Of a stretch of DNA of 64,000 nucleotides, positions 5,533 to 60,514 are shown in pieces. Below the pieces are notes generated by a model. It saw nothing but the letters and a program-made list of their open reading frames with translations, ran no database searches and was not told where the DNA came from. The DNA lies in the NCBI GenBank assembly GCA_017467105.1, contig JAFTSU010000002.1, positions 40,588 through 104,587 on the forward strand. Direction: 5' to 3'. The first letter of the stretch is position 1; each line of letters opens with the position of its first letter. The stretch comes from Clostridia bacterium (lineage in GTDB: Bacteria; Bacillota; Clostridia; Oscillospirales; CAG-272). The translations under genes and the position numbers were made by a program.

Positions 5533-5538
5533 ACTCCC

Positions 5539-5792
5539 GTAAACCGATGATGGAGAGTAGTAATCGCAGCCGTCACTCATTACAGAGAGCCGCGGAGCTG
5601 GGATGCGGTATGAGAGGTGCGACGAATGGACTCCTGAGGGCGAACCGAAAGCTTGGCGAGTAGGCTTCGACGGAGAGCAGCCGTTATCTATGCAACGCAT
5701 TTCGTGCGTGAGGAGGCTTATGCCTCGAACTTGGGTGGCACCGCGATAATTTCGCCCCGAGCAGTTTTTACTGCTTCGGGCTTTTTGTTTTT
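5539..5792 (+). promoter_or_regulatory. T-box riboswitch leader, tryptophan specifier (UGG)
   Basis: Specifier-loop context GAA-UGG-A with UGG at 5627-5629. T-box motif TTGGGTGGCACCGCG at 5731-5745. Terminator hairpin at 5753-5781 followed by a U tract. It is a paralogue of the leader at 20210-20465. Confidence 0.85.
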
Positions 5793-20209: not shown

Positions 20210-20465
20210 TATTAAAACAAAAAAAGCCCCGAGCAAAAACAGCTCGGGGCGAAATTATCGCGGTGCCACCCAAGTTCAAGGCGTAAGCCTCCTCACGCAC
20301 GAAATGCGTTGTGCAGATAACGGTTGCCCTCCGTCGAAGCCTACTTGCCAAGCTTTCGGTTCGCCCTCAAAAGTCCATTCACCAATGCTCCCGTACCGCA
20401 ATCACACCGCCTGCGGCTCTCTGAAACGTTATACGTTGGCTACTTCTCTTTATCACAGGTTATGT
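20210..20465 (-). promoter_or_regulatory. T-box riboswitch leader, tryptophan specifier (UGG)
   Basis: On the minus strand: GAA-UGG-A specifier (UGG is the complement of 20375-20377). T-box motif GGGTGGCACCGCG (20259-20273). Terminator at 20226-20250 plus a U tract. Confidence 0.85.
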
Positions 20466-48212: not shown

Positions 48213-48995
48213 ATGAAAACCAAATACCCTATAGTCTTAGTCCACGGCATCATGCTGAAGGACGTTTTGTTTGTCAAGGCATTCGGAAAGATAGAGAAAA
48301 GGCTAAAGGAAAACGGCTTCTCGGTCCACACCGCCGATCACGACGGTATGGGAAGCATCGAGAATAACGCCCGTCAGCTGAAAAGCTTCATAGAAGGCGT
48401 CCTATCGTCAGAGGGGGCGGAAAAGGTCAATATTATCGCGCACTCAAAGGGCGGCCTCGATAGCCTTTATATGATAAACAACCTTGATGCTTCAGATAAA
48501 GTTGCCTCGATAACGTTTCTTTGTACCCCTCACAAAGGATCGGTAATAGCGGATAAGCTGTATTCTCTGCCAAAGATAGTCAGAGGACCGCTGGTCTTTT
48601 GGTTCAACCTATTCTACCGAATGTTCGGAGATGAAAGCCCCGATGCTCTGACCGTTTGCCGTCAGCTATGCACGTCTCCCGACGGAATACTCGCGGCAGA
48701 CGAGGAGAAAAGCGGCGGCATATTTATGCAAAGCTTTTCCTCTAAAATGGAAAGTCACAAGGACGACTTTCTGATGAGTATTCCTCACGTTATCTCCCAC
48801 TACTACTCAAGCGGAGAGACTGACGGTTTAGTGTCGACTGACTCATCAAAATTTGCGCTCTACAGAGGGCATTGCATAGAGGAGTCGGTGTCACATTCAG
48901 AGATCGTTGACTTTATGACCAAAAAGGATAAGAAGGAGAAGATATACGCCTTCTATACGGAGCTTTGCACAGAGCTCGCACAGCTGGGTTATTAA
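48213..48995 (+). CDS. Alpha/beta-hydrolase lipase/esterase
   Basis: PIVLVHGI and nucleophile elbow AHSKGG are present. The start is moved to MKTKYP (RBS GGGGGTG). Confidence 0.7.
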   Translation: MKTKYPIVLVHGIMLKDVLFVKAFGKIEKRLKENGFSVHTADHDGMGSIENNARQLKSFIEGVLSSEGAEKVNIIAHSKGGLDSLYMINNLDASDKVASITFLCTPHKGSVIADKLYSLPKIVRGPLVFWFNLFYRMFGDESPDALTVCRQLCTSPDGILAADEEKSGGIFMQSFSSKMESHKDDFLMSIPHVISHYYSSGETDGLVSTDSSKFALYRGHCIEESVSHSEIVDFMTKKDKKEKIYAFYTELCTELAQLGY

Positions 48996-49140
48996 TATAT
49001 CGGCGCCTTCTCATAGCGAGCAACTCTCAGGTCAATAAACAAATCCCAATTAATAAGCAGATTTCAAATCAATAAGCAGATCCTCGACAGATAATGCCAT
49101 TTTTATCATATTTGTAAATCATACTTGTCATTTTAATTAA

Positions 49141-49190
49141 AAAACAGCTTATCGCAATAAATGTACGCGATAAGCTGTTTTTGTTTTTTG
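49141..49190. terminator. Bidirectional terminator
   Basis: 15-bp stem AAAACAGCTTATCGC / GCGATAAGCTGTTTT. Confidence 0.7.
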
Positions 49191-49209
49191 TAATATTTTA
49201 TTCCGTATA

Positions 49210-50451
49210 TTATCTTTCACTCAGGGTAACGCTTTCCTTTTCATAAAGAGGAGCGTACTTATCTTGATAGTAATTCTCGTGTACTATAATGGGGGACGAA
49301 TCGGACACAGTAATAACCGTACAGCCTCTCTGATCACCCTGCCCTGCTATACCAAAGTATGCCAGATAATCAATGCTTAAGCCGTACGAGAGTGTTACGC
49401 CCTTGTATTTCAGAACGAAGTTATTTAAGTGATCGTGACCGTAGAACATAGCCTCTGTGCTGCCAAGCTCAAGTATTGTCTCGAACATATTTTCATCCTC
49501 CTCGGGACAGTAGACCACCTGATCACTCTCACCGTCCACACCGCCGAGATACTCTGTATTTTCCGTATTTTGTCTATTGTTACCTACGTATTCGTCATAC
49601 GCGGCCTTGACCTCACGGATCGGAATATGCATAAACACCATGCTTTTTACAGCAGAGTAACGGGAAATTACCTCGTCGGATAAATCAAGGGACAGCTCCG
49701 AGAGCAGACTCTCGTTATATTCCTGATAATACTCCACAACGCCACGGTACCATTCTATCTGATCGTCTCTTATGCGGTCATAATCCCAACCGAGACCCAA
49801 GGGATCATCCTCTGAATAAGCATTGGTATCTATCATAACAAAAAGCTCTCTTACAATGCCGGACGAGCCCCTCACGCTTATGGCGTGATTGCACTCTCCA
49901 AACACGCCGTCAGGACCGGAACTGAAGAGACAGTGCTCAAGCTCCTCGCGTGAGTAAAGCTCCGCTACCTCTCTCCTCGTATGATAGTTGTAATTTTCCG
50001 AATCGTGATTACCGAACGTAACCGTCCAATACACTCCAAGCCGCTCCATAAGCCTTGCGAAGAATCTATGAGCATAGCCGTTATTCAAGGTAGCTGTCGT
50101 CGGTATGGCAAACGATATATCTCCGGTCACAACCACAAGGTCGGGCTTCTCCTCCGTAACCATAGCAGCCACGGCGTTGATGGCCATTCTGTCATTCCAC
50201 GCCGAAAGCACTCCGCCGCCAATATGTACGTCCGTCAGATGCATAACCTTGAAATCCCCATCGGTTACAAAATACGCCTCTCCGTTCTCACCGTACTGAA
50301 CTGTCAGAGCGTTTTCCTTCTCCACGGAGGAAAAGCTGTCGATATAGCCGTTCATCACAACACCGTTTACAACGTTAGCTACAGTAAACAATCCGCATAA
50401 CGCTATAATACCAATAAAAATAAAAAATAAAACCTTAAGAAATTTTTTCAT
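49210..50451 (-). CDS. Calcineurin-like metallophosphoesterase, membrane-anchored
   Basis: DVHIGG, GDISF, GNHD and GHDH motifs are present. The start is moved to MKKFLKV (RBS GGGAGA). Confidence 0.8.
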   Translation of the reverse strand: MKKFLKVLFFIFIGIIALCGLFTVANVVNGVVMNGYIDSFSSVEKENALTVQYGENGEAYFVTDGDFKVMHLTDVHIGGGVLSAWNDRMAINAVAAMVTEEKPDLVVVTGDISFAIPTTATLNNGYAHRFFARLMERLGVYWTVTFGNHDSENYNYHTRREVAELYSREELEHCLFSSGPDGVFGECNHAISVRGSSGIVRELFVMIDTNAYSEDDPLGLGWDYDRIRDDQIEWYRGVVEYYQEYNESLLSELSLDLSDEVISRYSAVKSMVFMHIPIREVKAAYDEYVGNNRQNTENTEYLGGVDGESDQVVYCPEEDENMFETILELGSTEAMFYGHDHLNNFVLKYKGVTLSYGLSIDYLAYFGIAGQGDQRGCTVITVSDSSPIIVHENYYQDKYAPLYEKESVTLSER

Positions 50452-50567
50452 ATTATCTCCCTTCAAAATCAGTACCGGTAAATATGAGCGGAAATAAACA
50501 AAGCACCATTTGCGCGTCAAATCGCCGCTTTCCCGTTAAACATAACGAAGCTGTCAGATCGGTCTGA

Positions 50568-50984
50568 TCAGAGCTGCCGTCTTCTTCTCTCAAGCTCCGC
50601 CAAAAGCTCACCGTTTTCCTTTACGCTGACGCTCGTTACGTCAAAGGTATTGTATTTAATGTTCAAGTGCTCGAAGGAATTTTTCAGGCTCATCATAGAC
50701 TCTGAGTAAAAGGAGCGCTTTCTTTCAACCCCTCTTATTTTGTTGTACGGGATCTTCTTTTTTAAGAGAAGGCCGTATTTAATAAAAAGGCATTCCTCTC
50801 TTAATTCAACGTATCCAAAAAGCGGTGACAAAAGAAAATACAGCACCAAAAGATCCGAGAGTACCGTTATAAAAAGAGCAAGAGGCGATGGAAAGGATAT
50901 CAACGTGAGTACCGCCATCAGAGCAAGTGTTGGTACACATATTATATAAAACAATTTATCTACCATCGGCTTATATCTTTTCAT
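50568..50984 (-). CDS. Membrane protein with bacterial PH (YdbS-like) domain
   Basis: Two TM helices are followed by a basic beta-rich domain. The start is at MKRYKP with AAAGGGGA 5 nt upstream. Confidence 0.45.
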   Translation of the reverse strand: MKRYKPMVDKLFYIICVPTLALMAVLTLISFPSPLALFITVLSDLLVLYFLLSPLFGYVELREECLFIKYGLLLKKKIPYNKIRGVERKRSFYSESMMSLKNSFEHLNIKYNTFDVTSVSVKENGELLAELERRRRQL

Positions 50985-51105
50985 TTTTATCCCCTTTTTC
51001 AAATAATAATTGTACGTTTTTGTTTACATTTTCGAACTTTTATGCATTTTCTGTACATCAGTATAATTTACACGCGACAATCTTTTCCCAAATATAAATA
51101 AACAA

Positions 51106-51885
51106 TCACAAGATGAGCCTCGACTCCTTCAGGGGATCTCTCCCCTCGTACCTTCTATATATTCGCTCCAGCGTATCCTTTATAGAAGCAGCATCGCAAA
51201 GCAAAGCGTCGGAGTCACCGATCTTGCCGCTTCTCTGCGCACCTGCCTCACAGAAGCAGTCGTAATACTTGTTAAAATAGTGAGAGAAATCACCCTCGCT
51301 CTCGTCAAACATATAGATGTCGCGCTTATCCTCTCTGCCATCAGCATATCTGACGGCGAGCTTGCGCGGATAGCTCTCAAGTCTTGGTATACCCAGCATC
51401 TCGTCAACCGCGTGTAGATAGGTGTTGGCGCTGTGATCAACTCCGACAAGCAGCACCGATCCACCCTCTGAATACAGCTTACCGTAGCAGCCCTTCGGCG
51501 AGGTCGGCGTTTCCACACGTGCCTCGTTTTCTATAAAGCGGAGAGCTCTCTCCCTCTCGCCGAATACTACCAGCGAATGAGTTGGGTTTTCACTTCTGAT
51601 GCCGTCCTCTCTATCCAGCGCAAGCCTTGGTAAAAGTCCAAGATTCGTATATTTTTTTCCAAGATCCAGCGTAACGTCAGTCCTGTCTACCAGGTCCCAG
51701 GTATGAGTTGGAATACAAAAGAGTCCGCCATGGACGGTAAAATATTCTACCATTATGTCCAAAAACGCCTCGGGACCGCCATAAATATTTCCAACCTTGC
51801 TGTAAGCCGAGTGCATTATTACCACTCTGTCGCGCGGTGGTCCTATAGCGTTAAGCTGCTTTATTATATCTTCACGAGTGTACAT
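51106..51885 (-). CDS. AAC(3)-family aminoglycoside N-acetyltransferase-like protein
   Basis: The VVIMHSAYSKVG...GGPEAFLD...PTHT pattern is present. The start is at MYTRED (RBS AAAGGA). Confidence 0.7.
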   Translation of the reverse strand: MYTREDIIKQLNAIGPPRDRVVIMHSAYSKVGNIYGGPEAFLDIMVEYFTVHGGLFCIPTHTWDLVDRTDVTLDLGKKYTNLGLLPRLALDREDGIRSENPTHSLVVFGERERALRFIENEARVETPTSPKGCYGKLYSEGGSVLLVGVDHSANTYLHAVDEMLGIPRLESYPRKLAVRYADGREDKRDIYMFDESEGDFSHYFNKYYDCFCEAGAQRSGKIGDSDALLCDAASIKDTLERIYRRYEGRDPLKESRLIL

Positions 51886-51915
51886 ACTTTTCCTTTTCAA
51901 TACGCTGTGCTTTTT

Positions 51916-53232
51916 TCATGGCACCATTTTAAATATTATGGGAAACAGACTTTCTCTGCCGTAGGCATTCACGCCGTAAACCTTGACCGTGTATTTTTTG
52001 CCTTGTGTAAGCCCCGTTACACGAATATTCACCGTCTCGGGAGTCGGCACGAAAATATGCCCTGAAAGTGCGTAGAACGTGCCTACGTATTTTCCGCCGC
52101 AAAAGATCTTGGCGCGGTAGCTCTCTATGTAATCATCGGAGACTGCCTGTGGAACGGTAATTGTTACGCTTCCATCCTCCATAGAAGTATATTCGCATTT
52201 AGCGCCCTTTTTAAATTCGGGTCTGTCCGTGGTCATTTCCTTTACGCTGTTTGTCACAAACATCTTTTTGCTTGTAGGAGCGTCTATTCTCCTCTCAAAA
52301 AGACGCGCTCCGGACGTTATATCATATCCGGTAAGCAGCATATTTCCGATCCTGTCACACTCCATTATCTGAAACACTCCGTAATCCGATGCTCCGGAGC
52401 GGTGATCCATCTGATATCCTCCGTCCCGTCCCACAGGAAAAACGTAATCATCCGAAACTCCGTTCAAGCCCATCTCGACGTAGCTGACGGTTCCGGTGCC
52501 TATCGCGGTGAAATCTCCCTGCCACAACGAGCGCTCGTCCTGTATAGGAAAATGGGAGTGTCCCGAAAAGTCGACAGCCTGAGGATACTTTTGAAGCACC
52601 CCGTAAAGCCCTGCGGCGCCCCATCCGCCCGAGCCGTATATCGTACCGAAAGCGTTATGGTGCTGCATTACGAATATGGGAAGTGACGGTGCGTCGTTTG
52701 ACGCCTCCCAAAGCTGCTGCTCCAGCCAAGCAAGCTTGTCGCTATTGAAGGTATCCTTATACGGTGACGCCTTGATAAAATGAAAACCGGATATCACGAA
52801 ATGATCGTCAACGCTGTCACCGAACACGCTCTCGTGCCTAGACTCCGTCGTATCCGTATCGGTATAAAATTCGTGATTTCCAAGAGAAACCGCAAGCTTT
52901 GTTTCGGGTTTAATATTGCTGTCAACTATGCTTTTGAATTTCTGCATAGAGCTCAGCGTTCCCGCCTGTGTATAATCACCGACAAAAATCACCGCGTCCA
53001 GCTTATCATATCCAAGCTCGCTCTCACTTGAATGTCTGTAAGCAACCTCAAACAGCCTTGCGAGCCTCGCTTCCTCAACCTCCGAGCCGTTGTCGTCTAT
53101 ATGAACGTCGCTGGCAACCGCAAATCGCAGCACCGGCACGAATTCCTCGCTCTCTGAGCATCCCACAAGCGACAGAGGCATCGCAACAATCACGAGAATA
53201 AAAGCCAGAAATATCGAAACAATTCTTCGCAT
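51916..53232 (-). CDS. Metallophosphoesterase lipoprotein with a C-terminal beta-sandwich domain
   Basis: Lipobox LVGC is present, together with SDVHID, GDYTQ, GNHEF and GHSH motifs. Confidence 0.75.
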   Translation of the reverse strand: MRRIVSIFLAFILVIVAMPLSLVGCSESEEFVPVLRFAVASDVHIDDNGSEVEEARLARLFEVAYRHSSESELGYDKLDAVIFVGDYTQAGTLSSMQKFKSIVDSNIKPETKLAVSLGNHEFYTDTDTTESRHESVFGDSVDDHFVISGFHFIKASPYKDTFNSDKLAWLEQQLWEASNDAPSLPIFVMQHHNAFGTIYGSGGWGAAGLYGVLQKYPQAVDFSGHSHFPIQDERSLWQGDFTAIGTGTVSYVEMGLNGVSDDYVFPVGRDGGYQMDHRSGASDYGVFQIMECDRIGNMLLTGYDITSGARLFERRIDAPTSKKMFVTNSVKEMTTDRPEFKKGAKCEYTSMEDGSVTITVPQAVSDDYIESYRAKIFCGGKYVGTFYALSGHIFVPTPETVNIRVTGLTQGKKYTVKVYGVNAYGRESLFPIIFKMVP

Positions 53233-53441
53233 TTTTATTACCCAACCGTTAAATAAATTATACTTTACAGATCAATTATATCATATATCTGTCAATATTT
53301 CCAGCATTATATAAACTTTGTCACATTGTTTAATTGCATTAACGCCGATCGGATCGTCGCGCAAACAAAAAAGCAAGGCAGTTAGCCTTGCCGAAGCTTA
53401 TTTTCTGATCCTCTCGCGCCACAGATCGCAGAGAAGCGGTT

Positions 53442-53640
53442 GAAATACGAACCCATTTTCTCGGCTTCGCCTGCGAAAACTAGGTCGAGTCAATCGAGAC
53501 GGTTCGCCAAAGCAAAAGAGAGATAGCCGCGAGGGGTCATCTCTCTTTTGTTAGTGGGTCATGCTTAATCAAAATCGAACCGTTATAACTAATCACGCCC
53601 GTGGCGTGTATATAATCAAAACATAAGTTTCACAAAAAAA
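53442..53640. repeat. Left island-border module: copy of the tRNA-Met downstream flank, a hairpin, a tRNA-3'-like remnant and a truncated iteron element
   Basis: 53442-53485 matches 60329-60372 (44 nt, 3 mismatches). A hairpin lies at 53514-53549. TAGTGGGTCATGCTTAATCAAAATCGAACC at 53552-53581 belongs to the CCACCA...TCGAACC remnant family. 53582-53632 matches the first 50 nt or so of the element at 56081. Confidence 0.75.
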
Positions 53641-53714
53641 CTCCGGGACAGATAAACTGTTGAGTCCGCCGCAAAAAGCCATACAACCAAGTCTCTCAAA
53701 AAATCATTCAATCC

Positions 53715-55592
53715 TTAGCTTTTATTGTTTTTTAAAAGCAAATAACAATATTTTTCTTTCATGATTAACTTATTGGATACAGCTTCACCATATAAAACCT
53801 TTTCAATCGTATACTGATTATCGATAGAGAATTCCAACTCTGTATTATCCTCATTAAAATTATAAAGCATTACCCCTATCTTTTCATTATTCAATTTATG
53901 TGCCGTTTTAAAAACAAATTGATTCCGAATTGCAAAAATTTCCTTTTTCCCTTCAAAGAAACTTCCGTAAATTTTATATAAATTCGTCTTTTCGGGGTAA
54001 TACGATTGGGTATAAAACGTTTCCAACGGTGCATTGACAAACAAAACGAGCCCTTTCCCATATTGCTTTTTGGCAATCACAACGTTGCCTTCTTGATCTT
54101 TGGCAACTATTTGCGCCGCGATGTTTTCAACGAGCAATTTTTGCGATCTTTCAATTTTCAAAACGCTCTCTTGCAAATCAAACTCAATCGCATTTTCTAC
54201 TTTCTCATGCCCTAAAATGCGCAATCCCGTCCATTTTTCAAAATCTCTGATTGTTCCACCATTATAAGTAATCAAAAGATTCGCTCCGTCTTGAATCCTC
54301 TTTTCCAAGACTTCCCACTGACATTTAGGCAGCCCGTTCGCTCCCGAAACACACGGAAGTATATAATAATTGGCATTTTTTAACGGTTGTTCTTCATGGC
54401 AAAAATCAATATATTTTCCAGACTGTACGCCTAACATAAAAGCACCATACGCAATTTTCCAATGGTCATTTATTCCACTTAAAATACAAACTGCATCAGT
54501 TTCAGGTGCTGTTAATGAGCCTATTTCTTGAATCACTTTTTGTAATACACGCATTTTTAACAAGGCCGGTTTTGGTTCACAATCCGCATAACATAAGCCT
54601 AAGTGGGTTTCCATCCCCACCACATCATAAGGTGCAAAATTTAATGACTCTTGATCAAATGCACACCACCATAGAAAACCTTTTGTTCCTGTCATATACG
54701 ACGTAATTAATGCCGTTTCTAAATATTCGGGAACTTTTTCATCACATAAAGCATCTAAAACCCCTATCTCTTGTACCATAGACGGTTTCTGCGCAATAGA
54801 AGAATAATAGGAATTTTCTACCGCAGCGTGCATAGACGCTCGCATAGCCGTCAACCGTTCTCGATTACAATAGGGAGTAAAATTGGGATAAGGGTGTGGC
54901 GTAACCATATCGAAAATCTTACCTTGCGAAGACAAACTCCAAAGCCCCTTACATCGCGTTCCGTGCATTCCCGCATAAATGGGACGAGTCGGATCTGCCA
55001 ATCGAATTATTGACGTTATTGTTCTAAGCCATAATTCCGCTTGATATTGATCCACTTCACAGCTTAAGCAATTCGTTTCATTTCCGGGCTCGTAAGCAAT
55101 TATATTTTCAAACTCTTTAATTTCGGAAATTAAATCCGTAATAAACGCACATTCATACAAAACAACTTCAGCATCTTTTATTAAATCTCTATTGATAAAA
55201 GGATCCGGAACCAGCTTACGCCCACTCATCCAACCTGTAATGAAAGAAACAATAACCTGCAATCCGTTATTTTTCGCCACAGTGAGCAAATGCTTCATAT
55301 TTTTTACTTGTTTCTCGTCTAATCCACTATCGGGAAATTTTTGATAAACAAGCGGTTGATCGCCCGTTCTCATTCTAAAAGAACCGCTCTCTGCAGCTTG
55401 GGTATTAAAAAAGCGCATTTCCGTCAACGGTTGAAAATCTGGCCAAAGCGGAAAAATACGAATTGTATTGACACCATAAGACCGCAACATTTGTAAGTCC
55501 TTTTCTACGGTGCCTTCATCGTATCTTCTCCACATATATAACCCTGCATGCGAGGCCCAATAATTAGCCCCAAAGAAAAATTCTTCTTTCAT
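53715..55592 (-). CDS. TIM-barrel glycoside hydrolase (clan GH-A, GH5/GH42-like) with a C-terminal domain
   Basis: 625 aa with GVNTIRIFPLW and an NET catalytic-acid context. Composition is visibly AT-richer. The start is at MKEEFFF (RBS AGAGGAAGG). Confidence 0.6.
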   Translation of the reverse strand: MKEEFFFGANYWASHAGLYMWRRYDEGTVEKDLQMLRSYGVNTIRIFPLWPDFQPLTEMRFFNTQAAESGSFRMRTGDQPLVYQKFPDSGLDEKQVKNMKHLLTVAKNNGLQVIVSFITGWMSGRKLVPDPFINRDLIKDAEVVLYECAFITDLISEIKEFENIIAYEPGNETNCLSCEVDQYQAELWLRTITSIIRLADPTRPIYAGMHGTRCKGLWSLSSQGKIFDMVTPHPYPNFTPYCNRERLTAMRASMHAAVENSYYSSIAQKPSMVQEIGVLDALCDEKVPEYLETALITSYMTGTKGFLWWCAFDQESLNFAPYDVVGMETHLGLCYADCEPKPALLKMRVLQKVIQEIGSLTAPETDAVCILSGINDHWKIAYGAFMLGVQSGKYIDFCHEEQPLKNANYYILPCVSGANGLPKCQWEVLEKRIQDGANLLITYNGGTIRDFEKWTGLRILGHEKVENAIEFDLQESVLKIERSQKLLVENIAAQIVAKDQEGNVVIAKKQYGKGLVLFVNAPLETFYTQSYYPEKTNLYKIYGSFFEGKKEIFAIRNQFVFKTAHKLNNEKIGVMLYNFNEDNTELEFSIDNQYTIEKVLYGEAVSNKLIMKEKYCYLLLKNNKS

Positions 55593-55615
55593 GTACACCT
55601 TCCTCTTTTCAATTT

Positions 55616-55846
55616 CAATCTAAAAATTTACTTAACAATTTTTTTGAAATCTGCATGTATGCACAGAATTTATCACTTTCTGGCCCGATTAATCTATATA
55701 AATCGCCTTCAAGAACAAATTGTTCATTTTCACGGTATAAACACGAAAATTTATGTATTTCCACTTTTTCCGTCTCGGAATTTTGAGATACGTCTAGTTC
55801 GTATCCGTAAGTATCAAAGGACGCAACTAAATAACGGAATTATAAA
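55616..55846 (-). pseudogene. Start-less relic of a glycosidase C-terminus (GDLYRL motif, GH36 alpha-galactosidase-like)
   Basis: A 76-codon open frame without a start reads ...FDTYGYELDVSQNSETEKVEIHKFSCLYRENEQFVLEGDLYRLIGPESDKFCAYMQISKK. It ends 21 nt before the GH gene start. Confidence 0.3.
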
Positions 55847-56027
55847 GTAGATTCTCTTCCGCTTGTACACACTAGGTGATATACCATTGTATGTGATTTT
55901 GGCAAAAAAGTCAATAGCTAAATAAAATTATTAAAAAAATTAAAACACTCTTTAATTTAGTCTTCCTCATTCGATATTTCTTCTGACGCTGTTAGCAAAT
56001 TTACAATATTTTTTAGCACTTAACCCA

Positions 56028-56370
56028 GAAAGGGCTGACCTCTTTTTGTTGGTGGAGAATCTTCAACGAAAGTCGAACCGCTATAACTAATCACGCCCGT
56101 GGCGTGTATATCATCAAAACATAGTTTTGTATATCATCAACACAACGTGTTGTATAGACGCTCGCAAACTCGTTATACCGTCGCTACGCTCCTTACATCA
56201 AGTCGCAGATGAATGCACGCTAAAGCGTGATGATATACACCTTTGGTGATGAGATACAGACCAAAGTCTGATGATATACCAAGTCTGCGACTTGGATAAG
56301 AAAAAACCTCACCCTGTTAGGATGAGGTTTTTTCTGGTGGAGCATCTTCAACGAAAATCGAACCATATTG
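56028..56370. repeat. Iteron/mini-hairpin element, copy B, with flanking tRNA-3'-like direct repeats
   Basis: 56028-56056 is identical to 60416-60444 (29 nt). The flanks TGGTGGAGAATCTTCAACGAAAGTCGAACC (56050-56079) and TGGTGGAGCATCTTCAACGAAAATCGAACC (56336-56365) are direct repeats. The core has GTATATCATCA at 56106 and 56129, and its complement TGATGATATAC at 56228 and 56269. A bidirectional terminator hairpin lies at 56300-56334. Confidence 0.85.
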
Positions 56371-56385
56371 TTCAAAAGGGGTTGA

Positions 56386-56802
56386 TTACAATTTTTCTCC
56401 GCACCGGGAGCAAAACGTAGAATCAGCATCTATTCTCGCGCCGCAATGCTTACAAAACATCGTTTTCTGTACACCGTTTGCAATCGCATTTGCTGTTTTT
56501 GAGACAGCGTCACTCATAATTTCCGCGCTGTTGTTCGCGATAGCCGTCAGATCATCTTTGTTTTCTTCCTGAATATACCTTAAGGTTTTGGCTCTTGCTT
56601 TTGCGATTTCAGGACCAAAGCCGATCGCTATTCCCAATGCGGTCATCATCACTCCTATAACCGCCACAAAGCTTCCGATCATAAAATTGTTGCTTTCAAA
56701 ATCTCCAAGTCCCGCAACGGTTAATACTATTCCCGTGACCGTCGAGGCGGCGCCAATAACCCCGATGATCTTAAATATCCAAAAATGTCTCGGACGATTC
56801 AT
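56386..56802 (-). CDS. Membrane protein with C-terminal zinc ribbon
   Basis: 138 aa with two TM helices, then CKHCG...CSRCG. Confidence 0.6.
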   Translation of the reverse strand: MNRPRHFWIFKIIGVIGAASTVTGIVLTVAGLGDFESNNFMIGSFVAVIGVMMTALGIAIGFGPEIAKARAKTLRYIQEENKDDLTAIANNSAEIMSDAVSKTANAIANGVQKTMFCKHCGARIDADSTFCSRCGEKL

Positions 56803-56943
56803 TCAAATTCCTCCCAATTTTTATAGCAGCAGTTTGTATTGCTTTCCTTGATTTTATTTTACACTGTTTTATATATTTTGTCAATATGGAGTTAGAAGAT
56901 AAAAAATAAGGCACAGTGGCGGGCTCTTGGTGTTACGCACGGC

Positions 56944-57217
56944 ATCACGCCCGGGGCGTGTATATCATCAAAACATAGTTTTGTATATCACCAACACAAC
57001 GTGTTGTATAGACGCTCGCGAGCTCGCTATACCGTCGCTACGCTCCTTACATCAAGTCGCAGATGAATGCATGCTAAAGCGTGATGATATACACCTTCGG
57101 TGATGAGATACAGACCAAAGTCTGATGATATACCAAGTCTGCGACTTGGATAAACAAAAACCTCACCCTATTCGGATGAGGTTTTTGTTGGTGGAGCAAG
57201 CTTCAGGAAAGTCGAAC
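56944..57217. repeat. Iteron/mini-hairpin element, copy C
   Basis: It is colinear with 56090-56365, with about 8 substitutions in the first 205 nt. A terminator hairpin lies at 57156-57186. The remnant TGGTGGAGCAAGCTTCAGGAAAGTCGAAC lies at 57189-57217. It has no left-hand remnant. Confidence 0.85.
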
Positions 57218-57238
57218 TTAGTGCTTAGTTGGAAATCT

Positions 57239-57832
57239 TTATTTTTTTAACAATTTAAAAGTGTTTTCTTCCACATCCCATTCGTAAGGAGTATAATTGC
57301 ACTTTTTCCCATTCTTACCAACTTTGCTATCACCGAGCAACACCAAAAAACAACCATCACTGATATTTGCGACCTTATTACTTTCGACTATTGCTTTGCT
57401 GACATATTCCAAATACGGTTCTTTTGGTAGTGCTTTGGGAACATATCCTACAACAACTCGTAATGGACAACGAATGTGTAAAAGTTTTATGATCTCATCC
57501 ATCCAAAGTTTATCGTTGTTTTCGTGTTCAATTGCGATCTCGAGATCCCAACAATATGTTTGAAAACTGTAGCTTTTGTTTTCCGGCACCAGCAGCTTAT
57601 CTTTGATTTCTTTTCTTCTTTGTGTCCAACCCGTTAAGTCAATACGATAATACTCTTTAGAGGTTTCAAGCCCAATACCACCTTTATCTTTTGATCCAAT
57701 GATACCCTCCATCATTCCAATAATAAATTCGGTATAATCTTTGCTATAATTCCACTTCTCCTGTGCTTCGGCGTAAATATCTTTTTTATTCAACTTATCA
57801 CTGAAAGCTTTCCAAAACTCTTTTGCTGTCAT
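57239..57832 (-). CDS. Hypothetical protein (197 aa), family not recognised
   Basis: Its ATG overlaps the upstream stop by 4 nt (ATGA). It contains an acidic YYRIDL...WDLEIAIEHEN pattern. Confidence 0.55.
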   Translation of the reverse strand: MTAKEFWKAFSDKLNKKDIYAEAQEKWNYSKDYTEFIIGMMEGIIGSKDKGGIGLETSKEYYRIDLTGWTQRRKEIKDKLLVPENKSYSFQTYCWDLEIAIEHENNDKLWMDEIIKLLHIRCPLRVVVGYVPKALPKEPYLEYVSKAIVESNKVANISDGCFLVLLGDSKVGKNGKKCNYTPYEWDVEENTFKLLKK

Positions 57833-58194
57833 ATTTTGTTCTCCTTGTTTTTCGTATGATGAAACGCTAATTTACCGATTTTGATATCTTTTGGAAGATT
57901 TTTTATTTCTAACAAAAGACAATTACAGAAGGCAGCATCACCGATCTCTTCAAGCCCTTTGGGAAGTGTGATTCCCTCAAGATTTACACACTCCTGAAAA
58001 GCGCTCTTGCCAATTCTCTTGAGAGTTGACGGAAGCGTAATGCTTACAAGTCCGTCGCAAAAAACAAAAGCTTCGTCACCGATTTCTGTTACGCCCTCGG
58101 GGATAACAACCTTCTCTATATCGTCACGCCCTGCATACGCACCATTTTCTATATTTTTCGTTCCTTGGGGAAGGGTTAATACTTTTTCGCTCAT
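57829..58194 (-). CDS. BspA-type leucine-rich-repeat protein (short)
   Basis: Repeated IPEGVTEIGDEAF / LPSTLKRIGKSAF / LPKGLEEIGDAAF units. The start is moved to MSEKVL (RBS AAAGGAG 6 nt upstream). Confidence 0.6.
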   Translation of the reverse strand: MSEKVLTLPQGTKNIENGAYAGRDDIEKVVIPEGVTEIGDEAFVFCDGLVSITLPSTLKRIGKSAFQECVNLEGITLPKGLEEIGDAAFCNCLLLEIKNLPKDIKIGKLAFHHTKNKENKI

Positions 58195-58470
58195 ATAAGG
58201 CTCCTTTACGATGTTTTTTATAAGTATATCGTGTGTATTTGAACGAGAAGTAAACAAATTACGACCCTGCCATTTCCGAGCTCCTTAAAAACATCTTTTA
58301 CTCAATTATAACACAGTTTAGGTAATTATACAATATCTGATGCACCTTTTGCGGCTGTATTGCAATAAAAAACATAGTTCGGTGTGTCACAGAATAGACG
58401 TCGAAAAACCACAATTTGTTCATATTTGGTATGTAAAATATAAATCCAAATTTATAAAAGGAGAGCAGAA

Positions 58471-59241
58471 ATGGGTGGAATTTATAAGAAAATCGGAAAC
58501 TACAATTTAGTTAGAAATTGCGAATTTTTTGGGTTGACAGACAACGAAGGACAAATGCTTTTGCCATGCGAATATGACAGCATATTTTACGAAGGCGGAG
58601 GATTTATTATCACAAAAAAATCGAAGTCGGGATATATCAGATTCCACGAGAAAGTCCCGTCTCACGATGAATACGAAACGGTGTTCGGGTATCCTGAGAA
58701 ATGCGCAGAACAGTTTTTACCCTGCATTTATGATCGAATTGAGCCAACCAGAAACGGCTTGGTTCTCTATTCCATGACAAAGAATAAATATTACGGTGCA
58801 AAGCGCGAATGGTATGATTGCAAGTCAGGTAAAATTTACAAAAACCTGCATTTTTTGCGCAATTATGGTGAATTCGATAAATTTCTCGATACTGATAATC
58901 CTGAGGAAAATTCAAAGCTTAAAAAATCCGGGGAGGATAAATATATCGGTTTTCCGTTCAATATATCAGGAGAAATTTTATACGAAGTTTCACTTTACAA
59001 CGGAGGTGCGCGCTATTTCGTGTGTTCCGAGGATCTTTCTGACGAGGAAATCGAGTTAAAGGGGCATATATGCGAATACTTCTTTTTGATAATACTGCCG
59101 AACACTTATACGTTTACAGAACCAAAATCCGAAATAGCTTTAATCTTTGAGGATTTTCCGAGGCTTGCGAGCATTTGGGACAATGAAGCTAAAAAAGAAA
59201 AAGAACAAAATGAATACAAAAAAAGAAAGGAAAACGGATAA
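58471..59241 (+). CDS. Hypothetical protein, possibly WG-repeat-like
   Basis: 256 aa with RBS AAAGGAG. LPCEYDSI and LPCIYDRI repeats are present. The family call is weak. Confidence 0.5.
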   Translation: MGGIYKKIGNYNLVRNCEFFGLTDNEGQMLLPCEYDSIFYEGGGFIITKKSKSGYIRFHEKVPSHDEYETVFGYPEKCAEQFLPCIYDRIEPTRNGLVLYSMTKNKYYGAKREWYDCKSGKIYKNLHFLRNYGEFDKFLDTDNPEENSKLKKSGEDKYIGFPFNISGEILYEVSLYNGGARYFVCSEDLSDEEIELKGHICEYFFLIILPNTYTFTEPKSEIALIFEDFPRLASIWDNEAKKEKEQNEYKKRKENG

Positions 59242-59444
59242 TGACAAGCACAAGGCAGGAAATTTATGACGGCAAAGGAGCGCGCATCGGCTGGATAGAA
59301 ACCGACGAGCGCGGTAATAAAAGAGTTTACAGCTTTTCAAAAGGTTTAGTCGGATTTTATTACAAGGATGCCAACCGCACGGTAACAGTGAGTGGAAAAA
59401 TTGTAGCCTACTCAGATTGTATGACAGCATTATTATTTTCGTGA
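59241..59444 (+). CDS. Small hypothetical protein (67 aa)
   Basis: TAATG overlap with the upstream gene. The sequence is beta-rich. Confidence 0.4.
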   Translation: MTSTRQEIYDGKGARIGWIETDERGNKRVYSFSKGLVGFYYKDANRTVTVSGKIVAYSDCMTALLFS

Positions 59445-59454
59445 GGTGAAAGAA

Positions 59455-59952
59455 ATGAAAGTGAGTATATATTCAAGAAAAGAGATGGAAACGCTTATTT
59501 CAAGAGATGAAATTGAAAACACTGCTATTATCAGCTTTTACGATCCCATCGGATGCCGACGTAGATATCTTGAAGATTACGCGCCTATTGATTTTTCGGA
59601 CAAATCCGACCGAGTTATGCAGATTGCCATTCACGACCTTGATCTCGAGGCACTCTCGGATTTCGGCTTGTCGGTGGAAGCCTATTTTCCCGAAGCTGAC
59701 ACTCTTGCTGAGTTTATCTATAAGGCAAAAGAGGACGGACTTGACATCATCTGTCAATGTGAATACGGTCAATCCCGCTCCGCAGGCTGCGCCGCCGCGA
59801 TTTTGCAACATTTTTTTAAGAACGGAATCGACGTGTTCGCCGATTACCGATATTACCCAAATCAGCTAGTGTACCATAAGGTGTTTGATGCCCTTGAGAA
59901 ATTTAAAGGAATACTAAAAACAAATGGCAATCCCCCCCAAAAAAATATGTAG
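59455..59952 (+). CDS. Cys-X5-Arg phosphatase-like protein (PTP/DSP fold candidate)
   Basis: CEYGQSRS fits the C-X5-R-S/T P-loop. The start is at MKVSIY, 5 nt after GAGGTGA. Confidence 0.5.
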   Translation: MKVSIYSRKEMETLISRDEIENTAIISFYDPIGCRRRYLEDYAPIDFSDKSDRVMQIAIHDLDLEALSDFGLSVEAYFPEADTLAEFIYKAKEDGLDIICQCEYGQSRSAGCAAAILQHFFKNGIDVFADYRYYPNQLVYHKVFDALEKFKGILKTNGNPPQKNM

Positions 59953-60247
59953 CAATCAAACTCGGAAAACAAATCACCCGACGCTTCTGTTTCAACGCGG
60001 AGATGTTATCAAGAACAAACGCACGGGTGATATTGCTTGTGTAGATAGTTTACCGATTCTCAATTCACATTTGGATTTTAGCGATGAGTGCTATTATTGT
60101 CATTCGTTGGATTGCCAAATTACAGAACAGATAATACGGAATGGAAGTGTTCATCTACACATTCACGTGTTTGATGCTGTTGCGTGTGATATAAAAACTC
60201 TTTCGACAAAACAAAACGAAAACCAATCCTCTTTCGAGGTTCGATAG
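59924..60247 (+). CDS. Hypothetical ORF (107 aa), doubtful
   Basis: It overlaps the previous gene by 29 nt and has no clear RBS. Its stop lies 1 nt before the 12-nt att-like repeat. Confidence 0.25.
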   Translation: MAIPPKKICSNQTRKTNHPTLLFQRGDVIKNKRTGDIACVDSLPILNSHLDFSDECYYCHSLDCQITEQIIRNGSVHLHIHVFDAVACDIKTLSTKQNENQSSFEVR

Positions 60248-60248
60248 T

Positions 60249-60437
60249 GACCATCTAGGATTTTGACGGAGAGCGTCAATATTTCCACACTCTGCGCCTG
60301 ACAAGCGAGCTTGTCGATCTTCGAGTGGGAAATGCGAACCTATTTTCTTGGCTTCGCCTGCGAAAACTAGGTTCTCGCGGACTAGGAAGTCCACCAAAAC
60401 AAAAAGAGGTCAACCGAAAGGGCTGACCTCTTTTTGT
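60249..60437. repeat. tRNA-proximal mini-module: 12-nt direct repeat of the tRNA 3' part, the 44-nt conserved segment, an inverted tRNA-end copy and a terminator
   Basis: GACCATCTAGGA at 60249-60260 is identical to 60443-60454, inside the tRNA. An inverted repeat GTCCACCAA(AA)CAAAAAGAGGTCA / TGACCTCTTTTTGTTGGTGGAC spans 60389-60445. Confidence 0.75.
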
Positions 60438-60514
60438 TGGTGGACCATCTAGGACTCGAACCTAGGACCGACCGGTTATGAGCCGGTAGCTCTAACCAAC
60501 TGAGCTAATGGTCC
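60438..60514 (-). tRNA. tRNA with CAT anticodon (elongator Met type, could be lysidine-modified tRNA-Ile2)
   Basis: Cloverleaf by hand: acceptor GGACCAT/ATGGTCC, D stem GCTC/GAGC, anticodon stem ACCGG/CCGGT with loop CTCATAA, T arm CTAGG-TTCGAGT-CCTAG, encoded CCA. Confidence 0.9.

Follow-up and report, generated by a model that had tools for sequence, protein, structure and literature searches.

Hairpin-and-repeat elements at tRNA and tmRNA 3' ends in gut Clostridia, with an architecture like that of the Gut-1 motif

We detected a real and widespread non-coding element in gut Clostridia, in which an 11-base repeat alternates with small hairpins. It is present in two full copies (A and B) and one truncated copy in the window, i.e., the whole stretch of 64,000 nucleotides of a Clostridia bacterium analysed here (contig JAFTSU010000002.1), and it recurs in many other genomes, mostly beside tRNA or tmRNA genes. 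We tentatively propose that these modules are the tRNA-proximal end of small integrase-less islets located at tRNA and tmRNA 3' ends, and that they act as DNA; this is the reading that we favour, held at somewhat short of an even chance.

Results

Copies of the element in the window

Copies A and B form a direct repeat (D1, 56090-56363 vs 56944-57217), and their parts are listed in Table 1. The preliminary description of this DNA put their identity at about 96%, which holds for the core from ATCA to GGAT (96.6%, 7 differences in 208) but not for the full length (93.5% over 275 columns in a global alignment). The truncated third copy that it reported was found at 53592-53632; the stretch 53546-53630 is 84% identical to 56044-56128, and the spacer GCTATAACTA recurs unchanged at 53582-53591. 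The 11-nt repeat TGATGATATAC, with at most one mismatch, has 12 matches in the window against 1.2 expected, i.e., about 10-fold over chance and equalled by none of 100 shuffles. Eleven of the 12 lie inside the three copies, where the iterons had been placed, and the different hairpins described as abutting each iteron are all present in the sequence and perfect. Both strands fold better than shuffled sequences (z = -4.6 and -5.6). The loop substitutions noted between A and B (cgt/cgg and ttt/ttc) were likewise confirmed, as was a C to T change in a stem at 56218, which gives a G-T pair.

Two supposedly degenerate iterons had to be reinterpreted. In the left arm, GTATAGACGCT is an ordinary third iteron into which 39 nt have been inserted. 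A strain of the same species has an uninterrupted GTATATCATCA at the L3 position; the insert is missing in a same-species strain and lies at the identical position in locus L025. The right-arm AGATGAATGCA at 56207 falls within a semi-conserved ..ATRCAC before the first right-arm hairpin and is no full iteron. Within the centre, CAAGTCGCAG (56199-56208) complements the terminal hairpin over its 3' half and loop (helix 6 of RNAalifold).

Table 1. Positions of the element copies and neighbouring features in the window (., no strand assigned).
Feature	Position	Strand	Details
Truncated third unit	53520..53632	.	Terminator ~53520-53550; degenerate fragment 53552-53581; spacer; ATCA and first hairpin; iteron 53608-53618 (1 mismatch); part of second hairpin
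Terminator right half and T-run	56020..56049	-	Homologous to tRNA-Met terminator 60408-60437 (alignment); remnant accompanying the displaced tRNA fragment
Degenerate tRNA-Met 3' fragment	56050..56079	-	CCA end to T loop; TGGTGGAG...TCGAACC on + strand; left direct repeat of copy A
Spacer GCTATAACTA	56080..56089	.	10 nt, between the fragment's T-loop end and the element's ATCA
Copy A, left arm	56090..56156	+	ATCA; CACGCC-cgt-GGCGTG; iteron L1 56106-56116; CAAAAC-ata-GTTTTG; iteron L2 56129-56139; CAACAC-aac-GTGTTG; GTATA, first half of L3
Copy A, insert splitting iteron L3	56157..56195	.	39 nt, GACGCTCGCAAACTCGTTATACCGTCGCTACGCTCCTTA
Copy A, second half of L3 and centre	56196..56215	+	L3 second half CATCA
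Copy A, right arm	56216..56279	+	CACGCT-aa-AGCGTG; iteron R1 56228-56238; CACC-ttt-GGTG; R2 56247-56257; CAGAC-caaa-GTCTG; R3 56269-56279; weak Gut-1 match 56206-56282
Copy A, terminal hairpin and right end	56279..56297	+	CCAAGTC-tgc-GACTTGG and GGAT; TGGATAA invariant in family alignment
Copy A, bidirectional intrinsic terminator	56298..56335	.	A-run, imperfect hairpin, T-run; I5 arms 56299-56315, 56319-56335
Copy A, right tRNA-Met-like 3' fragment	56336..56364	-	Right direct repeat of copy A
138-aa zinc-ribbon membrane protein gene	56386..56802	-	Between A and B
Copy B, ATCA to GGAT	56944..57151	+	Iterons 56960, 56983 (1 mismatch), 57082, 57101, 57123; same 39-nt insert 57011-57049; terminal hairpin 57133-57149
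Copy B, bidirectional terminator	57152..57189	.	I6 arms 57153-57168, 57174-57189
Copy B, right tRNA-Met-like 3' fragment	57189..57217	-	A/B homology stops here, at TCGAAC
tRNA-Met gene and terminator	60400..60514	-	Intact gene 60438-60514; terminator ~60400-60437

As had been described, each copy ends in a terminator hairpin followed by a tRNA-3'-like remnant (56299-56335/56336-56364 and 57153-57189/57189-57217). Both terminators have the intrinsic pattern of a G+C-rich hairpin between an A-run and a T-run, and a simple terminator scanner missed them because their stems are imperfect. The four tRNA-Met-like 3' fragments listed in Table 1 are homologous to the 3' end and terminator of tRNA-Met, and the intact gene at 60438-60514 is the one whose 3' end they copy and the anchor of the variable region; within the window A and B adjoin fragments only, the intact gene lying 3.2 kb off. 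The remnant had been thought to flank copy B on both sides. It is copy A that is so flanked (its two direct repeats have 1 mismatch in the first 18 nt), while the 138-aa gene, with a promoter-like site at 56884..56856 on the minus strand, separates B from the left fragment. The order in the window is thus element, 138-aa gene, element, 625-aa gene, truncated element.

A family in gut and rumen Clostridia

The family was gathered by a pattern scan with a strict repeat pattern, so divergent or decayed members are under-sampled. At least 120 loci were retrieved, nearly all in MAGs of gut or rumen Clostridia, and the feared outcome that no further copies exist in any genome did not occur. Chance or a purely local duplication is ruled out by these loci and the roughly 10-fold excess of the repeat in the window. 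The conserved plan runs from ATCA through three hairpin/GTATATCATCA units to a centre, then through three hairpin/TGATGATATAC units and a terminal hairpin to GGAT and a bidirectional terminator, usually followed by a convergent tRNA or tmRNA 3' end, with a module length of about 190-280 bp. Among the matches listed, the arm order is invariably left then right, 57 of 85 elements have 3+3 repeats, array length ranges from 3 to more than 11 units, and one-armed arrays also occur. The architecture is modular: paralogues have a common left arm but differing centre-plus-right modules, and in locus L073 centre and terminal types are exchanged between paralogues.

In the family alignment, 97% of the stem cells are paired and double changes occur in 29 of 44 pairs; the 11-bp helix between centre and terminal hairpin also covaries. 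Stems changing without compensation and unconserved iterons had been named as grounds for doubt, and the opposite was seen, i.e., strong covariation and invariant linkers. The left and right linkers are mutually complementary yet do not covary. The idea that left and right repeats pair into one long hairpin was rejected, as the variants are not complementary within elements and give no signal relative to shuffling. No complementarity between repeat and tRNA was observed (best match, 3 mismatches in 11). The right arm is flanked by 11-bp inverted repeats, and an invertible switch was also considered and discarded: left-type repeats lie beside GGAT in 1 of 96 right ends among the matches listed, apparently through deletion.

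Linkage to tRNA and tmRNA 3' ends

The tRNA linkage formed no part of the search pattern. Among the matches listed, 80 right ends were evaluable: 39 adjoin a full convergent tRNA, with more than 13 anticodons, 3 a tmRNA and 22 a tRNA-3'-like fragment, i.e., 64 of the 80 members adjoin a tRNA or tmRNA 3' end or 3' fragment. Identical terminator hairpins stand beside different tRNAs, the terminator-plus-element module is found beside many of them, and the terminator is retained even in members without a tRNA. The tRNA, terminator, element and next gene lie on one strand in 57 of 69 loci (among the matches listed).

Copy A and the element of locus L061 are each enclosed, without further genes, by direct repeats of tRNA 3' segments (18-37 nt) whose end lies in or near the T loop; in locus L012, such repeats enclose the element together with genes. 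Such T-loop-ending repeats are a signature of tDNA islands (PMC4383910). T-loop-like remnants 8-20 nt from ATCA were seen in about 8 further loci among the matches listed; as a general feature, a T-loop remnant beside ATCA was rejected, being present in about 10% of the loci (among the matches listed), and in most of the members listed a left direct repeat could not be detected. Precisely at the tRNA-fragment points, strains of the window's own species differ, with locus L121 diverging from the window left of the 56050 fragment and locus L159 carrying a single element in place of A, the 138-aa gene and B. Small inserts ("X") between the tRNA and the fragment-plus-terminator-plus-element intervene in 7 loci among the matches listed, so some fragments have been displaced by other elements. 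A direct repeat at -1112 in locus L034 was discarded as an island end, being part of a separate 175-nt insert absent from the orthologous locus L087.

Loops, base pairs and promoters

Loops of the c-GNA-g and c-GNNA-g types, which are stable DNA mini-hairpin classes (PMC13037366, PMC3201870), make up 89 of 190 on the GTATATCATCA-reading strand, in both arms, and 2 of 190 on the other strand (among the matches listed). The loop preference is mirrored between the arms because the favoured strand reads GTATATCATCA in both. On the plus strand, the left arm has GNRA and CUUG loops and the right arm the complement of the stable classes, the minus strand being optimised there. The stems are 99% Watson-Crick, with 11 one-sided (G-U) changes in 1986 cells, vs 7.9% G-U in the tRNAs of the same loci. 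The neighbouring bidirectional terminators, taken as a control, are also nearly without G-U (574 of 579 pairs Watson-Crick), which weakens the absence of G-U as a proof of DNA; this absence alone does not separate DNA from RNA.

No inward promoter is conserved in position among 64 loci, where inward promoter-like sites are scattered, and neither an inward -35 nor an inward extended -10 is conserved (64 loci, among the matches listed). On the outward strand, 21 of 64 loci have a -10 whose start lies exactly 18 nt from ATCA, and 28 of 64 have a TGn-extended -10 (both among the matches listed). The -35 of the outward promoter is formed by the left end of the element in about one third of the members, and the fixed-distance -10 is nearly symmetric (TATAATA). 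Judged from these motifs, promoter placement does not seem to favour expression of the element as a non-coding RNA.

Relation to Gut-1

An Rfam search at the element returned nothing at gathering threshold. Matches to Gut-1 (RF01706) scored 24.1 bits (56206-56282) and 21.6 bits (57060-57136), both on the plus strand, the gathering threshold being 50 bits; weak matches to EF3314_EF3315, Thr-leader and rimP cover the terminator only and were rejected. A true Gut-1 element (63.7 bits) lies directly after a tRNA and its terminator in locus L073, where it stands in tandem with a member of the present family after that one tRNA, with a T-loop remnant and a second terminator between the two. Both families have three variable-sequence hairpins separated by a short invariant single-stranded linker. 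In the published Gut-1 sequences, taken with their flanks, a terminator that often follows a tRNA precedes three units of hairpin plus linker; next come a centre whose sequence complements that of the first hairpin and 3-4 further units in inverted orientation. Gut Clostridia are host to both families, neither of which has a known function. They differ in the linker, GUGAAAU/GUGAUAU in Gut-1 vs UGAUGAUAUAC here, and in the arms, which are reversed relative to the terminator, so that the ATATCA-reading strands point outward in Gut-1 and inward in the present family. The Rfam model, moreover, takes in one arm only and treats as RNA a motif that its discoverers judged to be RNA (Weinberg et al. 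2010, PMC2864571). Because Gut-1 has the same architecture with a different repeat and the match is below threshold, the present family is a sister of Gut-1. The initial view that the element belongs to no named family is thus correct with regard to the Rfam threshold, but it overlooked this relative of the same architecture.

Search for a mobilising partner

Among the matches listed, no recombinase or transposase recurs in the 8-kb loci. A scan of 121 loci for tyrosine-recombinase motifs gave one candidate ORF, which lies upstream of its tRNA, on the wrong side. When 2322 ORFs of the loci were clustered all against all, no recurrent partner family emerged, with few exceptions: spurious ORFs that run across the element, an HTH family (10 loci) and a 4-helix-bundle gene. 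The last of these is itself an indel in the comparison of L034 and L087. BLAST of phage and plasmid collections gave no matches. A phage or plasmid origin was discarded, the 37 pattern matches in IMG/VR being mostly giant-virus contigs and all without the canonical architecture, and no related autonomous transposase element was found in the loci, IMG/VR, phages or plasmids. CRISPR arrays have repeats of at least about 23 nt, unique non-palindromic spacers and cas genes. Here, the repeat is 11 nt long, hairpins of 8-20 nt take the place of spacers and the neighbourhood has no recurring protein family, and a CRISPR array was rejected.

Discussion

A DNA-level role is favoured because of the tRNA 3' direct repeats, the strain polymorphism at these points and the mirrored strand preference of the loops, and also because no inward promoter is conserved while an outward promoter incorporates the left end. 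Along the tRNA strand, the module comprises a regenerated or displaced tRNA 3' segment, then the bidirectional terminator, the hairpin-plus-GTATATCATCA array, the centre and the second array inverted, with an outward promoter in about one third of cases. The 11-bp repeats may be sequence-specific protein sites, and the short perfect hairpins may be read on one strand of transiently single-stranded DNA. The reader would be a two-fold symmetric complex of a recombination machinery supplied in trans, which could insert, excise or exchange islets, acting at the T loop of the tRNA and between copies of the element. Present mobility, action as DNA rather than RNA and the nature of the binding protein are what we infer beyond the observations. 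Several observations count against the islet reading. Classic attP arms flank the crossover, whereas cargo-bearing members have both arrays to the same side of the presumed one, and a structured RNA would be expected to have features such as the covarying 11-bp helix and the attached terminator. The search for a recurring recombinase or transposase in the listed loci and for copies in IMG/VR, phage and plasmid collections was negative, and a left direct repeat went undetected in most of the members listed. Of the three hypotheses in the preliminary description, an integrase-less mini-element at a tRNA 3' end fits best in outline, given the tRNA/tmRNA linkage (64 of 80, among the matches listed), the direct repeats of copy A and L061 and the strain differences; the iterons as arm-type recombinase sites are a conjecture within it, and no recombinase was found.

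The most serious rival, possible though rather unlikely in our estimation, is a structured sRNA of the Gut-1 class, whose plus-strand transcription would start at a weak promoter divergent from the outward one and stop at the intrinsic terminator, with hairpins that would display the single-stranded 11-nt linkers to a protein or RNA as a sponge or scaffold. Compensated variable helices adjoining invariant linkers, a right domain closed by the covarying long-range helix, an intrinsic terminator with T-run that is integral to the element even without a tRNA, and an array length that varies, like that of sponge RNAs, between 3 and more than 11 units would all suit such a molecule, as would the judgement of Gut-1's discoverers (PMC2864571), the GNRA and CUUG loops on the plus strand of the left arm and a near-symmetric -10 that could fire inward too. 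However, one transcript cannot explain both arms, since the right-arm loops are optimised on the minus strand, and a minus-strand transcript would have to read through the strong terminator. The scattered inward sites with no conserved -35 or extended -10, the near absence of G-U compared with tRNAs, and the complementary linkers without covariation also argue against it, and it leaves the tRNA-fragment direct repeats and strain indels unexplained. The sRNA hypothesis put forward earlier is kept as a serious rival, shorn of a conserved inward promoter and of plus-strand optimisation in the right arm.

It is improbable that the element is instead a fixed boundary that acts in cis as DNA and separates a strongly transcribed tRNA gene from the gene that follows, uniting terminator, operator array and promoter, with the nearby tRNA fragments left by unrelated islands in the same tRNA genes. 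The same-strand order in 57 of 69 loci, the element end serving as outward -35 in 21 of 64 and the displaced fragments behind "X" inserts in 7 (all among the matches listed) agree with it; against this, elements alone are bracketed by tRNA-segment repeats in copy A and L061, the same terminator-plus-element module stands beside many tRNAs, the fixed-distance promoter is absent from many members, and variable 5-7-bp palindromes have no role in double-stranded DNA binding. Even less probable, indeed very unlikely, is a cargo-less MITE-like mini-transposon with ends ATC[A/C]A and inverted subterminal sites, mobilised by a DDE or HUH transposase with a preference for terminator-adjacent sites. Its ends are inverted-repeat-like (ATCA-hairpin-GTATATCATCA vs the complement at the GGAT end), the 3+3 sites resemble Mu/Tn7, the hairpin strand preference is mirrored between the ends and both flanks are A-rich, but by eye these A-rich flanks contain no consistent short target-site duplication, the terminator travels with the element although outside the putative ends, and one-armed arrays exist. 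With tRNA 3' segments of 18-37 nt as the sole repeats and no related transposase gene nearby or in mobile-element collections, the two-ended mini-transposon suggested in the preliminary description is not supported.

The favoured islet reading has parallels in known systems. As in the islands, and their integrase-less derivatives, that tyrosine integrases place in tRNA/tmRNA genes (Islander definition, PMC4383910), the element adjoins tRNA and tmRNA genes at their 3' ends, island DNA comes after the regenerated gene end, direct repeats consist of displaced 3' fragments that stop in the T loop, tandem arrays occur and strains differ at these points; in contrast, the present units have no integrase in or near them, can be as small as about 285 bp, and belong to one module family beside many different tRNAs. 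Integron attC sites, which like certain other recombination sites are recognised in a folded single-stranded form, are likewise imperfectly palindromic non-coding sites that conserve structure over sequence and alternate with short gene cassettes, whereas the present elements lack R/L boxes (GTTRRRY), an integron integrase and attI, show no selected left-right repeat pairing, are anchored in arrays at a tRNA gene, and each have their own terminator and often a promoter. Mu/Tn7 ends and iteron plasmid origins share several sites of about 11-22 bp with a period of about 22-25 bp in two inverted sets; their spacers, however, contain no hairpins, and a transposase or Rep gene is adjacent, neither of which was seen here. 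To our knowledge, iteron/hairpin arrays are no feature of described attP sites, and we know of no recombination site with hairpins between its protein sites. A bolder hypothesis, which we regard as unlikely, is that Gut-1 and the present family are recognition sites of an undescribed integron-like recombination system acting on folded single-stranded DNA, each repeat family with its own trans-acting recombinase, that is anchored at tRNA genes and would shift small gene cassettes and cargo-less islets in and out at tRNA and tmRNA 3' ends.

Conclusions

Gut-1, an orphan "RNA motif" since 2010 without context or function, is one arm of a larger two-armed element, and a second widespread family with a different repeat occurs in the same bacteria. 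Both families are tied to tRNA/tmRNA 3' ends, terminators and strain-variable mini-islets. If the RNA reading is true, they would constitute a new class of sRNAs built as repeat arrays, in which a defined 11-nt sequence is the ligand site. If the elements are sites of a recombination system, Gut-1 becomes a DNA site, and if they act as DNA, they would point to an unrecognised route for shuffling small gene cassettes in abundant gut Clostridia.

Copies and parts of the element in the window

The two full copies and the truncated third unit of the non-coding element that had been reported previously were all found (Table). The reported copy identity of about 96% holds for the core from ATCA to GGAT (96.6%, 7 differences), whereas the full-length alignment of copies A and B gives 93.5%. 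With at most one mismatch, the 11-mer TGATGATATAC matches 12 times in the 64 kb against 1.2 expected, and 11 of the 12 matches fall inside the three units, minus copies making up the left arm and plus copies the right arm, as the inverted arrays of an 11-bp iteron in the preliminary description had implied. Its differing hairpins were likewise confirmed, since every repeat in the window copies is adjoined by a short perfect hairpin and all hairpin sequences differ. Besides, both strands of the element folded better than shuffled controls.

Features located in the window
Feature	Positions	Strand	Remarks
Copy A	56090-56363		Direct repeat with copy B
Copy B	56944-57217		Direct repeat with copy A
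Truncated third unit	53546-53630		84% identity to 56044-56128
39-nt insert, copy A	56157-56195		Splits third left iteron
39-nt insert, copy B	57011-57049		Same insert as in copy A
Half terminator	56020-56049		Homologous to tRNA-Met terminator
tRNA-Met 3' fragment	56050-56079
tRNA-Met 3' fragment	56336-56364
Intact tRNA-Met gene	60438-60514		3' end and terminator homologous to fragments and half terminator
Region between copy B fragment and tRNA-Met	57218-60437		3.2 kb
T-box leader	5538-5762	+	Above Rfam threshold; unrelated to element
T-box leader	20242-20465	-	Above Rfam threshold; unrelated to element

The third left iteron, previously described as degenerate, is actually a normal iteron interrupted by a 39-nt insert, and it is intact in L159, a contig of the window's own species. 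This G+C-rich insert (GACGCTCGC...CGTCGCTACGCTCCTTA) has an identical split point in A, B and the element centre of L025, a locus of an unrelated MAG, and may represent either a subfamily domain or a tiny site-specific insertion.

The terminator and the tRNA-3'-like remnant reported at the end of each copy were both seen. An A-run, a hairpin and a T-run directly follow each full copy (hairpins I5 and I6), and after the T-run come about 29 nt like the reverse complement of a tRNA 3' end. Two tRNA-Met 3' fragments bracket copy A directly.

Extent and plan of the family

Rfam at its thresholds gave no match at the element, in agreement with its previous description as unnamed, and BLAST against phage and plasmid collections found no match to it either. 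A search of a single genome from each species for pairs of repeats spaced by 6-20 nt, a strict pattern that selected mostly MAG fragments, yielded at least 120 loci, so that the element is more than a local duplication. Among the matches listed, nearly all loci are from gut or rumen Clostridia MAGs labelled Acutalibacteraceae, Oscillospiraceae, Eubacteriales or Ruminococcus. The plan is constant: ATCA, then a hairpin and G[T/C]ATATCATCA, usually three times, the centre, then a hairpin and TGATGA[T/G]AT[A/G]C, again usually three times, a terminal hairpin, GGAT, A6-7, a hairpin and T6-7. Among these matches, minus copies almost always precede plus copies, and 57 of 85 elements have 3+3 repeats. 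One-armed arrays reach 10 units (L046:760-1180, L081:520-900, L110, L041), one arm has grown to at least 11 units (L098:1-300), and two-unit blocks are duplicated; these long arrays expand like minisatellites. The feature is real, conserved and widespread.

Selection on structure

Watson-Crick pairs account for 1281 of 1298 stem pairs in about 200 distinct inter-repeat hairpins among the matches listed. For an alignment of 46 canonical elements, RNAalifold predicted 44 pairs, with compensatory double changes in 29; 97.3% of cells were paired in this structure against 78.3% in shuffles (0 of 500 reaching the observed value), and the proportion dropped to 31-41% when partners were slid. Double-change cells numbered 344 against 103 expected, with only 11 one-sided changes, and the stems thus mutate with compensation. 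In 80 distinct elements the centre (e.g., CAAGCCGCAGG, CATTGCGAAAG or CAAGCCGACAG) is complementary to the 3' half and loop of the terminal hairpin, over a modal length of 11 bp and with 841 of 849 pairs Watson-Crick; a covarying inverted repeat therefore encloses the right arm and competes with the terminal hairpin. Since no complementarity was found between left and right repeat variants within elements, the repeats are conserved as sites and not as pairing partners. The structure of the element is under selection.

tRNA and gene context

Although the search pattern contained no tRNA features, a complete tRNA gene lies within 70 nt at 39 of 80 evaluable right ends among the matches listed, a tmRNA gene at 3 of 80, and a T-run followed by a TGG... 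tRNA 3'-end fragment at 22 of 80. All 39 adjoining tRNA genes are convergent and cover more than 13 anticodons; by our own estimate, a random site would meet a tRNA in such an arrangement in well under 1% of cases. Identical terminator hairpins occur next to different tRNAs, and the terminator thus belongs to the element. Two conserved right-flank sequences recur directly behind the terminator in loci without a tRNA there: TGGGTAGTT[C/T]GAACTTAATGACACGAAT...GCCTGAAAAC (L021, L058, L105 and two copies in L073), which may be a collapsed tRNA remnant, and GTGTTTACAG[C/A]TTAAAATAGCAACA (L042, L055, L086, and also L034/L087 near the insertion site of element 'X', described below). A weak match of 57109-57242 (-) to the Enterococcus sRNA EF3314_EF3315 model (25 bits, cut-off 100, E = 0.008) spans the fragment, terminator and terminal hairpin and is probably driven by the terminator; the common 'UUGUUUAUC' after the terminator is curious.

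On the far side, also among the matches listed, 57 of 69 genes share the strand of the tRNA. In 21 of 64 loci the outward strand has a -10 hexamer whose start lies precisely 18 nt from ATCA and whose -35 (TTGAT[T]) is provided by the element's end, and a TGn-extended -10 occurs on this strand in 28 of 64; inward promoter-like sites showed no positional pattern in these 64 loci. A four-helix-bundle gene (PF05635/TIGR02436) is the first gene past the element in about 13 loci (~20%) among these matches and is an indel between the orthologous loci L034 and L087. It encodes 115 aa, immediately left of the element and first after the outward promoter (L012, L034, L053, L055 and about nine more). DGR Avd proteins are relatives of this '23S rRNA intervening-sequence protein' family. 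It takes its name from genes inside rRNA-gene insertions, so that a possible connection with insertions at stable-RNA genes may merit attention.

Signs of mobility or recombination

In copy A and L061 the element by itself is enclosed by direct repeats of a tRNA 3' segment that stop within or close to the T loop, and in L012 such repeats enclose the element together with genes; they are the signature defining tDNA islands (PMC4383910). About eight further loci among the matches listed carry a T-loop-like remnant 8-20 nt from ATCA. Next to a tRNA-Ser, L049 has a remnant similar to the one in L020 that derives from a tmRNA, which suggests that it was carried over from another site. Seven of the listed loci have a different small insert between the tRNA and the fragment, terminator and element.

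A second small element, 'X', of about 130-300 nt, begins with a tRNA 3' end in reverse complement and has its own terminator; in L034 and several others, an inverted T-arm copy lies close to the opposite end. The insertion point is either immediately behind the T-run of a terminator or between a tRNA and its displaced 3' fragment (L034:968-1146, with similar inserts in L015, L019, L039, L058, L063, L084 and L099), and the filled site in L034 forms a clean pair with the empty orthologous site L087:1285-1290.

Within the window's species, contig L121 is 99.9% identical right of a break and unrelated left of the 56050 fragment. L159 fuses 48715-56156 to 57050-57250 and has a single uninterrupted canonical element where the window has A, a 138-aa gene and B. 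Paralogues in L055 and L058 have common left arms and differing centre-plus-right modules, and those in L073 have centre and terminal types swapped. Considering these direct repeats, remnants, strain differences and module swaps, the sequence between 53.5 kb and the tRNA-Met at 60.5 kb looks like a stack of units that varies between strains, each unit starting with a tRNA-Met 3' fragment and terminator. The stretch between the copy B fragment and tRNA-Met encodes BspA-type LRR, WG-repeat and phosphatase-like proteins and proteins without a Pfam match; as the tRNA-Met 3' end and the corresponding fragment delimit this stretch, it may constitute another islet, one lacking the hairpin/repeat module.

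Relation to Gut-1

Apart from weak matches around the terminator, the element resembles only one Rfam entry, the orphan RNA motif Gut-1, against which the right arm scores 24.1 bits, below the cut-off of 50. The published Gut-1 alignment carries flanking sequence that follows the plan of our element (PMC2864571, supplementary file 95): a tRNA or gene end, a terminator, hairpins with GUGAUAUU or GUGAAAU between them three times, a centre that complements the first hairpin, and an inverted array (AAUAUCAC) three or four times. However, the repeats differ and the arms are oppositely oriented relative to the terminator. A true Gut-1 match (63.7 bits) follows a tRNA and terminator in L073, where Gut-1 and an array of the present GTATATCATCA family stand in tandem after one tRNA (L073:1790-2110), with a sense-oriented T-loop-like remnant (GAGTTCGAATTC) and a second terminator between them. 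The two families thus co-occur, and a tandem at a single tRNA is possible. Based on the shared plan, this tandem and the differing repeats, the element represents a new sister family of Gut-1 and not a Gut-1 member.

DNA or RNA

The main rival explanation, which we regard as somewhat less likely than a role as DNA, is an sRNA of the Gut-1 type. The terminator integral to the element, the covarying closing helix and the invariant linkers favor it, as does the judgment of Gut-1 as an RNA by its discoverers. However, loops of the form c-GNA-g, c-GNRA-g or c-GNYA-g occur in 89 of 190 cases on the GTATATCATCA-reading strand and in 2 of 190 on the other (among the matches listed), the preferred strand being plus in the left arm and minus in the right, so that the two favored sets never lie on one transcript. 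This mirrored bias would follow naturally from a protein-DNA complex with two-fold symmetry. To our knowledge, GNYA loops, found in the right arm, are not a class favored in RNA. C-G-closed GNA triloops and GNNA tetraloops are classic, very stable DNA mini-hairpins (PMC13037366, PMC3201870). G-U pairs are almost absent from the element, compared with 7.9% in the tRNAs of the same loci, but the bidirectional terminators next to it lack them to the same degree, and their absence therefore argues for a constraint on both strands and not for DNA in particular. As relaxed duplex DNA is not expected to extrude stems of 5-7 bp, a role in DNA implies transient single strands.

An element acting as a fixed boundary or operator is less likely still, as is a mini-transposon, which was also proposed previously. 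The integrase-less miniature integrative element of the preliminary description comes closest to our own reading through the tRNA-end direct repeats and the strain differences, but its expected recombinase partner did not emerge: no recurrent protein family was found near the elements among the matches listed, and only one tyrosine-recombinase-like ORF occurs in 121 loci, upstream of its tRNA. Overall, the best-supported reading, which we put forward tentatively, is a DNA-level module forming the tRNA-proximal end of integrase-less islets, in which proteins would bind the repeats, and the hairpins would be recognized in single-stranded form.
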